DNA of 64,000 nucleotides from Clostridia bacterium (GTDB lineage: Bacteria; Bacillota; Clostridia; Oscillospirales; CAG-272): the NCBI GenBank assembly GCA_017631855.1, contig JAGBSP010000004.1, forward strand, positions 81 to 64,080. Reading direction: 5' to 3'. The notes under the pieces are model-generated. The model was given only the letters and a program-made list of their open reading frames with translations. It made no database searches and had not been told where the DNA came from. The first letter of the stretch is position 1; every line of letters starts with the position of its first letter. The translations under genes and the position numbers were made by a program. Of this stretch, positions 4,122 to 56,035 are shown piece by piece.

Positions 4122-4198
<77 letters not shown>

Positions 4199-8777: not shown

Positions 8778-9081
8778 GCAGACTGCAAAAGAAGACCATA
8801 CACCTTAAGATCGAATCTCACCTTTACGCGATCTTCGCTCCTCCTGCTCCAAGCAGGCTGCCTCGCGGCACATCGGGCTTACTGATTAATGCTGCTTGGT
8901 TCCCCACCTGACATGGTTCACAGCGCCCAATTGCGCAAGACCCGCTCTTCAACGCAGCAGGACACGACTCAGACCGTATCGGATCAACCCTCAAAAAAGG
9001 AATGAACCCCTGCTGTAGCGGATTTCAGGTTCAGGGCACCGCTAATTCCCCGGCTGGTATGGCCTTATTTCGCAGTCTGCG
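8778..9081 (-). ncRNA. ffs: signal recognition particle RNA, large Bacillus type (scRNA/ffs)
   Basis: The minus strand contains TTAGCGGTGCCCTGAACCTGAAATCCGCTACAGCAGGGG (Alu-domain region). It also contains GAACCATGTCAGGTGGGGAACCAAGCAGCATTAATCAG...ATGTGCCGC (domain IV). These match the B. subtilis scRNA pattern from memory. A 9-bp closing helix (GCAGACUGC/GCAGUCUGC) is followed by a U-run. Its position upstream of dnaX is conserved. Ends are approximate. Confidence 0.8.
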
Positions 9082-9228: not shown

Positions 9229-9564
9229 TTAGCGAGCGTTGTTCTGCTTGTTCTGAGAATTGTTCTGATTCTGATTGTTCTGCTTGTTCTGATTCTGATT
9301 GTTTTGATTCTGATTGTTTTGATTCTGATTGTTCTGATTGTTCTGATTCTTGTTGTTTTGATTATTCTGAGAGTTGTTTTGGTTCTGATTGTTGTACTGC
9401 ATCTTCAGCTCCGTTTCTCCGTCGACAGAAAAATAAGAATAACAGTCGTAGGTCGACGGAACAGGACTGTTAAAGCACATCACACGTAACGTCGTAACGT
9501 CCGTGGGAAGTACGACGTTAGTATGTGCCACAACCCTTGGCAATATACAGTTTTCTAAAAACAA
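9229..9564 (-). CDS. hypothetical small protein with a C-terminal Asn/Gln-only tract
   Basis: This is the ORF envelope. Possible starts are TTG 9564 (3 nt after the upstream stop), ATG 9480, or ATG 9402 (GGAG 6 nt upstream). It is co-directional with the upstream genes and followed by a terminator. The start, and even coding status, are uncertain. Confidence 0.45.
   Translation of the reverse strand: MFLENCILPRVVAHTNVVLPTDVTTLRVMCFNSPVPSTYDCYSYFSVDGETELKMQYNNQNQNNSQNNQNNKNQNNQNNQNQNNQNQNNQNQNKQNNQNQNNSQNKQNNAR
9238..9393. repeat. imperfect tandem repeat, unit about 15 nt (gattctgattgtt[c/t]t), in frame
   Basis: Direct reading of 9238-9393. It encodes the N/Q tract on the minus strand and an L/I/V tract on the plus strand. 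Confidence 0.8.
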
Positions 9565-18405: not shown

Positions 18406-19884
18406 TTAAAGAATAATACAAATTAAGCCGCCGCTACCCTCATTGATGATTCTCTCGAGGGTTTCGGAGAGCTTCGTACGCGATTCCTCGGGCATATGCT
18501 CGAGCTTGGTGTGAAGTCCCTCGTTGACGAGTTCATAAAGGCTCTTACCAAAGACGTTGGATTCCCAGATCTTTTGCGGCTCTTCCTCAAACTCCCTTAA
18601 CATATAGCGAACGAGCTCTTCGGACTGTTGCTCTGTTCCCACGATCGGATTGATCTCGGTTTCGATATTGGCGCGAATGAGGTGAATGGATTGTGCCGAA
18701 GCGCAAAGACGAACGCCATAACCGCCCGACTGTTTTACGATCTGCGGCTCTTCGAGATGAAGCTCCTCAATGCTCGGCATTACGATGCCGTATCCCTTCT
18801 CTTCTGCCATTGCAAGCGCCTCGGAAACACGCTCGTACTGTCCCTTCATCACGGAAAGCTCTTGCAAAAGCTCAATGAGCGCTCGCTCTCCCGTAATTTC
18901 AAATCCGCTTAGCTCACTAAGCACCGAATAATACAACGCGTCGTCAAAAGCGAGACGGAGCTTTGCCTTTCCCGTACCGAGATCAATTTCTTCGATGCGA
19001 ACACCGCACACGTACTCGTTATTTTCAAGATCGCCAAACGCATTTTTCAAGTCGCCTGTTTTATGAATTTTATCTGCGCAAGCGCAAAGAGAGCTTTGCA
19101 ACGAAGCTTTGATCTTGTGATCGGCATCCAGTGCTTCCATCCAAACGGGCAATTCTACAGAAATTTCCGACACGGGAAATTCGTGAAGTACAAGCTCAAG
19201 AATATGACGGATATCTTCTGCATCAAGATCAATACAGCTCACCAACGCCACGGGAACGTCGTACTTTGCCTCCAGCTCATAGGCAAGCGCGATCGCCGCT
19301 TCCGACGAAGGATTTGCAGAATTCAAGACCATTGCAAAGGGTTTTCCAATGCTTTTTAATTCGTTGACGATTCGCTCCTCGGCAGGAACGTAGCTTTCTC
19401 TTGAAATCTCACCGATCGTTCCGTCGGTCGTAATCAGCATACCGATGGTCGAATGCTCCTGAATGACCTTCTCCGTTCCCATTTCTGCGGCTTCAACAAA
19501 GGGCATCGGCTCTTCCTGCCACGGCGTATGTACCATGCGAGCCTGACCGTTTTCAATCGTACCGAGGGCTTCGGAAACGATATATCCGACGCAATCGATC
19601 ATTTTAACGCGCAAGGACGCACAGTCGTCAATTTTGATCGTTACCGCCTCGTCAGGTACAAACTTCGGCTCGGTAGTCATCACCGTTTTTCCTGCGGCAG
19701 ATTGCGGCATTTCATCGCGTGCACGATCTCTGGAATAGTTGTCGTCGATATTCGGCAACACCAAGGACTCCATAAAACGCTTGATAAAGGTCGACTTTCC
19801 CGTACGAACGGGACCAACGACGCCAATATAGATATCACCGCCCGTTCTTTCGGCAATATCTCGGTAAATCGAATGCTCAGCCAT
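18406..19884 (-). CDS. spoIVA: stage IV sporulation protein A (spore coat morphogenetic ATPase)
   Basis: 492 aa. The N-terminus IYIGVVGPVRTGKSTFIKRFME carries Walker A. SpoIVA-typical over its full length. Confidence 0.96.
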   Translation of the reverse strand: MAEHSIYRDIAERTGGDIYIGVVGPVRTGKSTFIKRFMESLVLPNIDDNYSRDRARDEMPQSAAGKTVMTTEPKFVPDEAVTIKIDDCASLRVKMIDCVGYIVSEALGTIENGQARMVHTPWQEEPMPFVEAAEMGTEKVIQEHSTIGMLITTDGTIGEISRESYVPAEERIVNELKSIGKPFAMVLNSANPSSEAAIALAYELEAKYDVPVALVSCIDLDAEDIRHILELVLHEFPVSEISVELPVWMEALDADHKIKASLQSSLCACADKIHKTGDLKNAFGDLENNEYVCGVRIEEIDLGTGKAKLRLAFDDALYYSVLSELSGFEITGERALIELLQELSVMKGQYERVSEALAMAEEKGYGIVMPSIEELHLEEPQIVKQSGGYGVRLCASAQSIHLIRANIETEINPIVGTEQQSEELVRYMLREFEEEPQKIWESNVFGKSLYELVNEGLHTKLEHMPEESRTKLSETLERIINEGSGGLICIIL

Positions 19885-47317: not shown

Positions 47318-47413
47318 TTTATTTTCATTCCTTTCATTTTTTAGAAAATTCAATCGATATTCTTTATTATACACCCTTTTTTCTTTTTTTTCAAGTGATT
47401 TCGAGATTTTCTC

Positions 47414-47444
47414 AAAAAGAAAAGCCGTTGCAAGCAACGGCTTT
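47414..47444 (-). terminator. rho-independent terminator after the Cys-rich protein gene
   Basis: aaagccgttgc/gcaacggcttt hairpin followed by a T-run on the minus strand. Confidence 0.65.
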
Positions 47445-47450
47445 GAAAAA

Positions 47451-48296
47451 TCAGCTACCGCAACCGCACTTTCCGCCGCGTCCGTCGGTAGAAGCAGGGG
47501 TATATCCCGGAGGGCAAAACTCCGCCGTCGGGAATGCCATCGAGCGAAAGATTGCGCAAGGATTATCCTCTTCGGTCGAAACACATTCCTTATCGGGCAC
47601 GCAATACTCGGTCGCGTGAATCAAATACTGCGCAGGACGAACAATCCGAACAACCGAGAAAATGCCAAAGGACACGGTAACGTAGCGTCCGTCCGCATCG
47701 CGCAGCGATCCGTTCAGAAGGCGCGACACCGTTTCGGGAATATCGTTACAGCAACAACCGCAGCAGTCACAGCAGCCGTCGTCCGCTTCACGAACCTTCG
47801 TATTGAGAATGATCGGGTCAACCACCTCAACAATGGCAATCGGCACGTTCTTTGTGGAGCAGCAAGGCTCGGGAACGGTACAGTAATCCGAGGTGTCGGG
47901 ACTGCTCTTGAAAATGCTGACGTTGCTTTCACTACCGTAAAGCACAACCTTCTTTTCCAATACCGCAACGCCATCAAACTCCTGACTGCGTCCGCCGCAC
48001 AGACAAGCCTCAAACGTCACCTTAACGTAAAATTTGATCGTAACGGAATAGAAGCCGCGATTGAATTTCACGGGATCAATTCCGATATAAGTCCAAGTAA
48101 TACAAGCATTCTTTGCGCGGATATTGGTTGTATGCTCCAAAATCTCATTTCCGAAATCGGTCAGCAATACCCTAACGTCCTCAAAGCAATCCCGATCGCG
48201 GCAAGAATCCAAAATTCGATTGGTTTCGATGGTCACCATCTCATTTCTTGCCGAATTTTTTTCAGAGGGACCGCAAGAAAATCTGTTGTCTGACAT
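47451..48296 (-). CDS. hypothetical cysteine-rich protein (281 aa, 22 Cys)
   Basis: ATG 48296 has an AGGAGG RBS and the gene has its own terminator. It contains DDGCCDCCGCCCND and ends GKCGCGS. No family recognised. Confidence 0.7.
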   Translation of the reverse strand: MSDNRFSCGPSEKNSARNEMVTIETNRILDSCRDRDCFEDVRVLLTDFGNEILEHTTNIRAKNACITWTYIGIDPVKFNRGFYSVTIKFYVKVTFEACLCGGRSQEFDGVAVLEKKVVLYGSESNVSIFKSSPDTSDYCTVPEPCCSTKNVPIAIVEVVDPIILNTKVREADDGCCDCCGCCCNDIPETVSRLLNGSLRDADGRYVTVSFGIFSVVRIVRPAQYLIHATEYCVPDKECVSTEEDNPCAIFRSMAFPTAEFCPPGYTPASTDGRGGKCGCGS

Positions 48297-48432
48297 ATAA
48301 TAATTCTCCTCCTGAATCAATAATCAAAGCCATCGGCTTTTCCTTCTTAGTGTATGCAAAGAAACAAATTTTGACAATTCGGGCAAAGAAGTTGTTTTTG
48401 TAAAAATAATCGAAGATATTTGCAAGAAACAC

Positions 48433-48501: not shown

Positions 48502-49986
48502 ATGAACGCAATCGGCTTTGACAGTAATAAATATATTCAGTTGCAATCTCAAAAAATTCAAGAAAGAATTTCAAGCTTCGGCGGAAAGCTCTATCTTGAA
48601 TTCGGCGGAAAGCTCTTTGACGACTATCATGCCGCCAGAGTTCTCCCGGGCTTTTATCCAGACAACAAAATCAAAATGCTTCTGCATATGAAAGAAGATA
48701 CCGAGGTGATCATCGTTGTATCTGCCACGTCGATCGAGCAAAATAAGATGCGCGGTGACCTTGGCATTTCTTACGATCTGGATACGCTTCGTCTGCTCGA
48801 TACCTTTTCGGATATTGGAATGTACGTCAGCGGCGTCGTTATTACCCAATATATGCAGCAACCCTCGGTAGATGCGTTCATCAAGCGTCTGGACAACCTC
48901 GGCGTCAAGGTTTACCGTCATTATCCCATTGAGGGGTATCCGACCAACGTTCAAAAAATCGTTAGCGACGCAGGCTACGGAAAGAACGACTATATCGAAA
49001 CCACAAAATCGCTCGTCGTTGTCACCGCCCCCGGTCCCGGTAGCGGTAAGATGGCAACCTGCCTCTCTCAGCTCTACCACGATCACAAGCGCGGAATCAA
49101 GGCAGGATATGCAAAATTCGAAACCTTCCCCGTGTGGAATCTTCCCTTAAAGCATCCCGTCAATATGGCGTACGAGTCGGCAACGATCGACCTCAACGAC
49201 GTCAATATGATCGACCCTTTCCATTTGGAAGCAACGGGGGTGACGACGGTCAACTATAACAGAGATATTGAAATCTTCCCTGTTCTCAAAGCGATCTTTG
49301 AAAAAATTTACGGCGAATGCCCCTATAAGTCCCCGACCGATATGGGAGTCAATATGGTTGGCTACTGTATTACCGATCCCGATGTCGTGTTCAAGGCATC
49401 CAAAATGGAAATTGTTCGCCGCTATTATGATACGCTCTGCCGCAAGAGAAACGGTCTTGCCGATGCCGAAGAGGTATACAAAGCTGAGCTAATTATGAAC
49501 CAAGTAGGAATCGACGTTAATTTCCGTCAGGTTGTAAAATCGTCTTTGACCAAAGCAGAAGAAACAGGAAAGCCTGCCGCCGCAATCGAGCTTCCCGACG
49601 GATCGATCGTTACGGGAAAAACCTCGAACCTGATGGGTTCTGCCGCAGCAGTTCTTCTGAATGCACTCAAAAAGCTTGGTGGAATCAACGACGAATTTCT
49701 CTTGCTCCCTCCCGTGGTAATCGAACCCTTGCAAAAGCTGAAAACCGAGAACCTCGGAAATCGCAACCCCAGACTCCATGCCGATGAAATTCTGATGGCA
49801 CTTGCAATTTCTGCTACCACCAACCCGATGGCAGCACTTGCAATGGAGCAGCTTCCCAAGCTCAAGGGCGCACAGGCACACGTCAGCGTCATCGTTTCCA
49901 GTGTTGATAAAACCATCTACCGCAAGCTCGGCATTGATCTGACCTGCGAACCGGTATATGAAAGAAAAAAGCTTTATCACAAATAA
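48502..49986 (+). CDS. DUF1846 / UPF0371 family protein
   Basis: 494 aa. The N-terminus GFDSNKYIQLQSQKI...GGKLFDDYHAARVLPGF is typical of the family as I recall it. Confidence 0.88.
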   Translation: MNAIGFDSNKYIQLQSQKIQERISSFGGKLYLEFGGKLFDDYHAARVLPGFYPDNKIKMLLHMKEDTEVIIVVSATSIEQNKMRGDLGISYDLDTLRLLDTFSDIGMYVSGVVITQYMQQPSVDAFIKRLDNLGVKVYRHYPIEGYPTNVQKIVSDAGYGKNDYIETTKSLVVVTAPGPGSGKMATCLSQLYHDHKRGIKAGYAKFETFPVWNLPLKHPVNMAYESATIDLNDVNMIDPFHLEATGVTTVNYNRDIEIFPVLKAIFEKIYGECPYKSPTDMGVNMVGYCITDPDVVFKASKMEIVRRYYDTLCRKRNGLADAEEVYKAELIMNQVGIDVNFRQVVKSSLTKAEETGKPAAAIELPDGSIVTGKTSNLMGSAAAVLLNALKKLGGINDEFLLLPPVVIEPLQKLKTENLGNRNPRLHADEILMALAISATTNPMAALAMEQLPKLKGAQAHVSVIVSSVDKTIYRKLGIDLTCEPVYERKKLYHK

Positions 49987-55694: not shown

Positions 55695-55982
55695 TTAAAA
55701 AAATGACCGTTTCTTTTTCCTCTGATCTGCCCTGCACAGATCTGCCTCCAAGAGTCGGACAAGGATAGCATCTTCTCCGATACATTCGATTTTCTGCCAC
55801 GGGATAATGAGGTCGTTGCAATGGCTAAGTCCCAAAAATCCGCTCGGACGCGGAACAATAATCGCTACGATCCTTCCATCACATACGTTCACTTCAAAAT
55901 CTTCCGGACATCCGAGTCTCGTACCGTCGCAAAGATTGATCACTTCTTTTTCGCGTAAGCTGCAAGTATTTAACCGTTCCAT
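55695..55982 (-). CDS. YlmC/YmxH family sporulation protein (PRC barrel)
   Basis: Start at MERLNTCSLREKEVINLCDGTRLG (ATG 55982) with an AAGGAG RBS. Family-typical sequence. Confidence 0.85.
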   Translation of the reverse strand: MERLNTCSLREKEVINLCDGTRLGCPEDFEVNVCDGRIVAIIVPRPSGFLGLSHCNDLIIPWQKIECIGEDAILVRLLEADLCRADQRKKKRSFF

Positions 55983-55983
55983 A

Positions 55984-56035
55984 AAAATCTCCTTTGCCAA
56001 AGCTTGATAGTATCACTTTATGCAAAGGAGATTTT
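55984..56035 (-). promoter_or_regulatory. perfect 14-bp hairpin pairing with the ylmC Shine-Dalgarno sequence
   Basis: Minus-strand RNA: AAAAUCUCCUUUGC, a 24-nt loop, GCAAAGGAGAUUUU, then U AUG. The arms are at 56022-56035 and 55984-55997. Confidence 0.5.

Follow-up and report, generated by a model that had tools for sequence, protein, structure and literature searches.

A divergent CsxA-type, cysteine-rich protein as a probable spore-envelope component of uncultured gut Clostridia

The subject of this study is a minus-strand gene in a 64,000-nucleotide stretch of contig JAGBSP010000004.1 of a Clostridia bacterium (GCA_017631855.1), and the whole stretch is hereafter called the window. The gene encodes a cysteine-rich protein of 281 aa, the window protein, whose 22 Cys residues (7.8%) are located at positions 8, 32, 37, 65, 98, 100, 139, 145, 146, 175, 176, 178, 179, 181, 182, 183, 232, 238, 247, 261, 277, and 279. 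Seven of the nine residues in the segment CCDCCGCCC (175–183) are Cys, a PCC sequence is found at 144–146, and the C-terminal end reads GKCGCGS. A first-pass annotation had already described the gene and these features from the letters of the window, and every count and coordinate given there checked out; the AGGAGG ribosome-binding site and the gene's own terminator, which it had also reported, were found at the positions listed in Table 1. The ATG at 48296 was taken as the start codon instead of the upstream TTG at 48320, because the homologues begin at the same Met (MxxNRF...).

The comparisons of sequence profiles make it close to certain that the window protein belongs to the CsxA superfamily as one of its divergent members. 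Published work on the Cys-rich spore proteins of clostridia pointed to CsxA of Clostridium sporogenes (G9F2G0), whose sequence is given in the supplement to Janganan et al. 2016 (PMC4942563), and its comparison with the alignment profile of the window family, consisting of 84 sequences, gave an hhalign probability of 98.2% with E 4.8e-14 over 222 columns, spanning profile positions 27–275 and CsxA residues 23–261. When CsxA was used as the query, 87 proteins were retrieved, mostly from Clostridium, Haloimpatiens, and Hathewaya, all of which carry the precomputed Pfam assignment PF27077 (CsxA). The comparison of the family alignment with a 52-sequence alignment built from these CsxA proteins gave a probability of 99.0% with E 2.3e-18 over 213 columns, and in reciprocal searches the hidden Markov models (HMMs) of the two sets each matched all members of the other set.

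The precomputed PF27077 assignment is also present on seven central members of the window family, which are 35–43% identical to the window protein. The precomputed Pfam annotation is empty for the best 120 of the 1828 relatives of the window protein retrieved by a word-indexed search, and PF27077 is not assigned to the window clade because the protein sits at the far edge of the CsxA superfamily. Scans with Pfam-A and NCBIfam gave no match for the window protein nor, with the cut-off relaxed to E ≤ 10, for any of the 84 members of the family, where the Pfam-A library was scanned without PF27077 and CsxA itself was unmatched. In the PDB, neither the window protein on its own nor the profile found anything beyond chance sequence matches.

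The motifs common to both families were identified in the hhalign and HMM alignments. The N-terminal strand ends in D-S/Q-C-x4-C, or D-x-C-x3-4-C in its general form, and the motif at the two conserved Cys residues is DSCRDRDC in the window protein and DQCLRKEC in CsxA. The C-terminal block is TLG.F..V....Q.L.P...YC.P..EC..DPC..F..P..F/YPP, for which the likeness between the two proteins can be written as ITLGLF...VQL..PAYGYCP.P.EC..DPC..F..P..YPP. Five Cys residues, C32, C37, C232, C238, and C247, are common with CsxA, and a Cys-rich loop is located directly before the last long strand in both proteins, DCGGGCNCGCTC in CsxA and DDGCCDCCGCCC in the window protein. The two proteins are also alike in size and Cys content, with 281 aa and 22 Cys in the window protein versus 299 aa and 25 Cys in CsxA.

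The AlphaFold2 model of the window protein, obtained with a diverse alignment, is confident, with a predicted local distance difference test score (pLDDT) of 81.5 and a predicted template modelling score (pTM) of 0.76, and consists of six long β-strands and short C-terminal helices. Its elements are E21-46, E59-75, E82-98, E104-120, a loop, E153-170, the Cys loop, E204-226, and H246-252, and those of the CsxA model are E37-56, E78-98, E106-125, E128-148, a loop, E173-189, the Cys loop, E209-234, and H250-256. The order is the same in both models: long strand 1, strands 2–4, a disordered loop, and strand 5, followed by the Cys loop, long strand 6, and the C-terminal helix. The differences from CsxA lie in the Cys cluster, which is far denser in the window protein (7/9 residues, versus DCGGGCNCGCTC), in the C-terminal end, which is a CGC tail in the window protein whereas CsxA ends in a long acidic tail, and in the host, which is an uncultured gut Clostridia lineage in contrast to Clostridium sensu stricto.

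The first-pass annotation had recognised no family for this protein, which proved to be wrong, as it has more than 3700 relatives. The best 120 of the 1828 relatives mentioned above are 73–91% identical to it, are 262–293 aa long, and are unnamed or labelled hypothetical. HMMER, run exhaustively against 1.84 billion representatives, gave 878 clusters at E ≤ 1e-3, the most distant of which have approximately 28% identity, and a profile search gave 3720 clusters (90% identity) at E ≤ 1e-10, almost none of which is annotated. At this threshold, all 3720 clusters fall in Clostridia. Among the GTDB species genomes, a relative is encoded in 189 stretches; the best 80 of these all belong to metagenome-assembled genomes (MAGs) of uncultured Clostridia, Eubacteriales, Oscillospiraceae, or Lachnospiraceae of gut origin (ruminant, human, or other). 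Family members also occur in named carriers, such as Solibaculum mannosilyticum and a MAG of Petroclostridium. A cluster look-up for 10 distant representatives gave neither names nor organisms.

Among the 84 sequences of the family alignment, D30, C32, C37, several Gly, Pro, and Phe residues, R220, P246, and C247 are near-invariant, where C32, C37, and C247 are conserved in at least 90%. The columns of the poly-Cys cluster contain Cys in just 2–52 of the 84 sequences, which indicates that the cluster is not family-wide, and some members have only 5–6 Cys residues in total. In the window's own clade, the cluster is retained with 5–9 Cys residues per 12-residue span, the C-terminal CxC (the CGC tail) is present in 119 of the 120 close relatives, and the Cys count of the close relatives is 20–26.

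This distribution of Cys residues bears on the function that the first-pass annotation had offered as an alternative, namely, metal binding. A metallothionein-like protein or a scaffold for iron–sulfur clusters, in which CCDCCGCCC binds metal and which works with the Mrp/NUBPL-type ATPase encoded by the gene directly downstream (mrp), would account for the seven Cys residues in nine and for the CGC tail. However, the poly-Cys columns and the members with few Cys residues described above do not agree with such a role, and the conserved core of the family is a β-structure homologous to a structural exosporium protein. No metalloprotein match was obtained in Pfam, NCBIfam, or the PDB. The gene mrp is the downstream neighbour in none of the 71 related loci tabulated, and in the window it is separated by the terminator and has its own near-consensus sigma-A site (Table 1). 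The metal-binding alternative and the link to mrp thus both failed to find support, the former because conservation of the poly-Cys cluster does not extend to the family as a whole and the latter because mrp is not a conserved neighbour, and a metal-binding or iron–sulfur protein is considered extremely unlikely.

The first-pass annotation had also pointed to a sequence approximately 50 nt before the ATG, CATACACTA, as a −10-like element of the sporulation type. This element is present and fits CATAnnnTA exactly, and the promoter TTGTCA-N15-CATAnnnT has been retained, at constant spacing, in approximately 70 species-level genomes. The conservation was examined in 72 distinct upstream regions, where the encoded proteins are 55–94% identical to the window protein, and the consensus was atTGTCAaa-N12-gCATAnnaTrtTAnnGAAGAG. 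The C of TGTCA was kept in 60/72 regions and the next A in 66/72. The C of CATA was kept in 70/72 regions, where the alignment anchor favoured C, and the A, T, A, and later T of CATAnnnT were found in 72/72, as was required by the anchoring pattern. Counted from the C of CATA, TA was found at +10 and +11 in 66/72 and 71/72 regions, respectively, and G at +14 in 71/72; this conserved G is the probable start site.

When the regions were anchored on TGTCA instead, CATAnnnT was found at +15 in 46/57 and at +16 in 8/57 (54/57 together). The strict pattern TGTCA-N15-CATAnnnT occurs 50 times in approximately 0.9 Mb of related loci, of which 48 occurrences stand before a csxA-like gene; as a regulon search, this showed that hardly any other gene in the related loci has the strict motif. 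A looser promoter pattern was found three times in the window against 2.1 expected, which is not above chance, and the promoter evidence therefore rests on conservation.

The −10 boxes of the CATA type are shared by sigma-E and sigma-K of C. difficile, for example, CATATTAT and CATATAAT (Saujet 2013, PMC3789822), and sigma-E promoters are recognised by an ATA motif at −35 combined with such a −10 box (PMC3789822). The consensus atTGTCAaa of the 72 regions contains no ATA at −35, and the conserved C located 16 nt upstream of CATA occupies the place of the sigma-K AC, which is expected 16–17 nt upstream of a CATAnnnTA box. The base before that C is T in the window clade (TC), instead of the A of sigma-K, and A is found in place of T in more distant clades (GTAACA, CACAC). 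The upstream sequence of C. botulinum csxA is CACAC-N-GCATACTATA, and those of two C. estertheticum csxA paralogues are CACAAC-N-GCATAATAT and GCATATTAT; all three genes have AC-N16/17-CATAnnnT(A), a 5' hairpin, and AAAGGAGG. Both the window gene and csxA are monocistronic, with a CATA-type promoter approximately 60–80 nt upstream and a leader that combines a 5' hairpin with a strong ribosome-binding site; the −35 element differs, being TTGTCA in the window versus CACAC in csxA.

These comparisons suggest that the promoter belongs to the mother-cell sigma-K/sigma-E class, where sigma-K is most likely and sigma-E less likely. The upstream region of spoIVA in the window contains CATATATT with no clear −35 element and is uninformative for sigma-E versus sigma-K. 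The idea that a spore former uses a mother-cell promoter for this gene, proposed in the first-pass annotation, is borne out to the extent that the promoter is conserved, that it resembles the Clostridium csxA promoters, and that the genome has spoIVA. The SpoIVA encoded in the window is full-length with all three Pfam domains, which places the host in an endospore-forming lineage.

A sigma-70-type reading of the same site, TTGTCA-17-TACACT, scores 9/12, and the earlier statement that no clear sigma-A hexamers are present is not strictly true. A vegetative protein transcribed from such a sigma-A promoter (TTGTCA-17-TAnnnT), unrelated to sporulation, would agree with the −10 sequences of many homologues, TATTAT or TACAAT, and with the conserved TTG of the −35 element. 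However, the CA before TAnnnT, found in 70/72 regions under the anchor favouring C and in the 54/57 regions anchored on TGTCA, is characteristic of sigma-E/K −10 boxes and lies outside the sigma-A consensus, and the −10 hexamers are often poor (TACACT, TATGCT, TATCCT, TACCAT). In addition, the characterised homologues are spore proteins, and the Clostridium csxA genes share this architecture and carry a clear AC at −35. On balance, vegetative expression from sigma-A is considered very unlikely.

The transcript leader between the −10 element and the start codon contains a hairpin (Table 1). A hairpin of at least 4 bp was found within the first 34 nt after the −10 element in 60/69 distinct leaders, where the stem sequences differ, and the mean z of the leader hairpin was −2.6 relative to shuffles in per-sequence folding. 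The hairpin is thus conserved in structure, not in sequence; Rfam gave no match at the csxA-like locus. Stabiliser hairpins at the 5' end protect Firmicute transcripts from 5' exonucleolytic decay, and the leader hairpin is probably such an mRNA stabiliser.

Table 1. Coordinates of the csxA-like gene, its expression signals, and other features in the window.
Feature	Coordinates	Strand	Remarks
Coding sequence, CsxA-superfamily protein	47451..48296	(-)	N-terminal motif IETNRILDSCRDRDC conserved; Cys-dense loop 175-183
Coding sequence, C-terminal features	47451..48296	(-)	conserved block FGIFSVVRIVRPAQYLIHATEYCVPDKEC..NPCAIF..FP..EFCPP; CGC tail
Shine-Dalgarno AGGAGG	48308..48313	(-)	11 nt before ATG; GGAGG in nearly all homologous loci
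5' hairpin AAAGCC-GAT-GGCTTT	48326..48340	(-)	6-bp stem; purine-rich GAAGGA tract before stem
-10 element CATACACTA, probable sigma-K/sigma-E class (CATAnnnTA / CATACAnT)	48348..48356	(-)	51 nt upstream of ATG
-35-like element TTGTCA	48372..48377	(-)	C lies 16 nt upstream of CATA
Intrinsic terminator	47411..47444	(-)	G+C-rich 10-bp stem AAAGCCGTTG/CAACGGCTTT, 4-nt loop, then TCTTTTT
Sigma-A site of mrp, TTGAAA-17-TATAAT	47366..47394	(-)	11/12; just past the csxA-like terminator
DUF1846 (UPF0371-type) gene	48502..49986	(+)	divergent to the csxA-like gene
spoIVA	18406..19884	(-)	
Gene for small PRC-barrel protein	55695..56000	(-)	PRC domain match
tRNA gene	4125..4198	(-)	
Bacterial large signal recognition particle (SRP) RNA	8796..9062	(-)	153.8 bits
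Q/N-repeat open reading frame (ORF), 111 aa	9229..9564	(-)	C-terminal half almost pure Q/N repeat (QNQNNQNQNN...)
DNA tandem repeats of 15 and 24 nt in the Q/N-repeat ORF	9242..9393		

The csxA-like gene stands alone, and its neighbours vary across the 71 related loci. The divergent DUF1846 gene is paired with it in 21 of these loci, all of close relatives, and the pairing is absent in more distant ones. An operon with mrp or with the DUF1846 gene was considered as a candidate and rejected, since the latter is divergent and found in close relatives only, and mrp adjoins the gene nowhere else. The N-terminus of the mrp product is itself Cys-rich (CTHNCSTCSSNC).

In contrast to the csxA loci, the vicinity of the window gene contains no collagen-like, glycosyltransferase, or DUF4489 genes and no conserved divergent partner. 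Genes for glycosyltransferases and for collagen-like (Bcl) proteins accompany csxA often, although they are not obligatory. C. estertheticum has two tandem csxA paralogues, each with an AC-N16-CATAnnAT promoter, followed by a DUF4489 gene, and in Hathewaya histolytica csxA is likewise followed by DUF4489. The loci of the Clostridium-type csxA include L085 (3001-5471) and L084 (3001-4740); in these two and in L083, a divergent upstream partner of 511–609 aa, for which Pfam gave no match, is present in all three.

In the contig of an 83%-identical relative (L081 16373-18574 and L082 6528-8729), genes for ScmC (PF27840), PqqD, and an HD-domain protein are found together with an unknown ORF 5–7 kb downstream. 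This cluster looks like a maturation cluster of the type of ribosomally synthesised and post-translationally modified peptides (RiPPs).

Elsewhere in the window, the small PRC-barrel protein resembles YlmC/YmxH. The SRP RNA and one tRNA are the only Rfam matches in the window, and the Q/N-repeat ORF is located between the SRP RNA and a membrane ORF of 477 aa for which Pfam gave no match.

The homology to CsxA relates the window protein to an exosporium lattice protein that has been characterised by experiment. In C. sporogenes and C. botulinum, the exosporium is tiled by CsxA, the component that defines its basal layer; the recombinant protein self-assembles into a hexagonal two-dimensional lattice identical to the native exosporium, and this lattice is sensitive to reduction, where disassembly requires boiling in 2 M dithiothreitol (PMC7333573). 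The gene csxA is essential for the exosporium (Fisher et al. 2026 preprint, 10.64898/2026.09.03.749163). In the same preprint, CsxA was modelled as an intertwined trimer with the SPOCS/DUF3794 fold, where trimeric tripods build the lattices, and CsxA, CsxC, CdeC, and CsB were described as a Cys-rich structural class as opposed to the Cys-poor organisers CotE and SipL (10.64898/2026.09.03.749163).

As a β-rich, putative spore-envelope protein, the window protein resembles CsxC, CdeC, CsA/CsB, CotE, and SipL, which are proteins of the SPOCS/DUF3794 fold; the candidate link of its family to this fold comes from the preprint model of CsxA. None of the 84 members of the family matched PF12673 (DUF3794), with E ≤ 10 as the cut-off. 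The comparison of CsxC with the family profile gave a probability of 0.3%, that is, no detectable similarity, and that of CdeC, for which an approximate sequence served as a weak test, gave an hhalign probability of 1% over an 11-residue stretch only. The Cys-rich strategy is also shared with ExsY, CotY, and CotZ of the Bacillus exosporium and crust, which form self-assembling, disulfide-locked hexagonal arrays in the mother cell (PMC7333573). However, these proteins are not homologous to the window protein. No Pfam CotY/CotZ match was found in the window family, and a different fold has been reported for them (10.64898/2026.09.03.749163).

Taken together, the gene probably encodes a divergent CsxA-type, Cys-rich, self-assembling spore-envelope protein, which the mother cell would produce from a sigma-K-like promoter and whose Cys residues would form the cross-links. 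The idea of a cross-linked coat or exosporium component had been put forward in the first-pass annotation, and the homology of the family to CsxA, with PF27077 on some members, agrees with it. In the proposed process, the RNA polymerase of the mother cell would transcribe the monocistronic gene from TTGTCA-N15-CATACACTA in late sporulation, and the 5' hairpin and the strong ribosome-binding site would give a stable and heavily translated mRNA. The protein may then oligomerise via its long β-strands and tile an ordered layer around the forespore, which would be the exosporium basal layer or an outer-coat-like lattice. Disulfides involving the Cys loop 175–183, the CGC tail, and C32, C37, C232, C238, and C247 would lock the layer, and the predicted function, judged from homology, is that of a disulfide-cross-linked lattice at the spore surface.

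Several observations weigh against this reading. Besides the T before the conserved C at −35 and the sigma-70-type hexamers described above, the direct similarity to CsxA is low: BLASTP aligns the window protein with CsxA only over residues 205–272 (68 aa) at 24% identity with E 1e-4, and its score on the CsxA-family HMM is just 22.6 bits. A Foldseek search of the PDB with the model of the window protein found nothing significant (best E 0.026, with template modelling (TM) scores below 0.2 for SecB and RAD52). No ORF with G-X-Y repeats (collagen-like, BclA-type) was found within the 64-kb window, no glycosyltransferase gene adjoins the csxA-like gene, and all close relatives of the clade are uncultured MAGs. 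With such divergence, the function may have shifted to the coat, a parasporal layer, or a morphogenetic role.

The divergence from CsxA and the surrounding genes might be explained by a protein of the CsxA superfamily that is not an exosporium tile, that is, a component of the inner or outer coat, a parasporal crystalline layer like that of CsxC, or an organiser like CotE or SipL. One fold class serves several roles (Fisher et al. 2026, 10.64898/2026.09.03.749163), and the unusually high conservation within the window clade, 73–91% across many species bins, suggests many constrained contacts. However, the high-Cys class has been assigned to cross-linked structural arrays and not to organisers (10.64898/2026.09.03.749163), and the full-length homology is specifically to CsxA, while CsxC shows no detectable similarity. 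A role of this kind is considered unlikely, and the CsxA-type lattice protein described above is preferred.

A bolder version of the preferred reading is that the window clade may give uncultured, strictly anaerobic gut Clostridia a spore-surface material of their own, where the CCDCCGCCC loop and the CGC tail, instead of simply forming disulfides in advance, act as a latch triggered by redox conditions or metal. In this case, a metal–thiolate cluster or an oxygen-triggered zip would harden the lattice only once the spores leave the anoxic gut, and the cross-linking chemistry of this branch would differ from that of CsxA. This version is regarded as speculative and quite unlikely.

The dominant spore formers of the gut have spore envelopes that are essentially uncharacterised, and spores drive the transmission of commensals between hosts. 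More than 3700 clusters of so-called hypothetical proteins are now tied to CsxA as candidates for the main self-assembling scaffold of the spore surface, and the current Pfam annotation of CsxA misses most of the superfamily. What is new is a highly diverged and very populous branch, by which a known family and its biology are extended without introducing a new principle. The conserved mother-cell-type promoter together with the 5' hairpin could mark late-sporulation expression in uncultured Clostridia.

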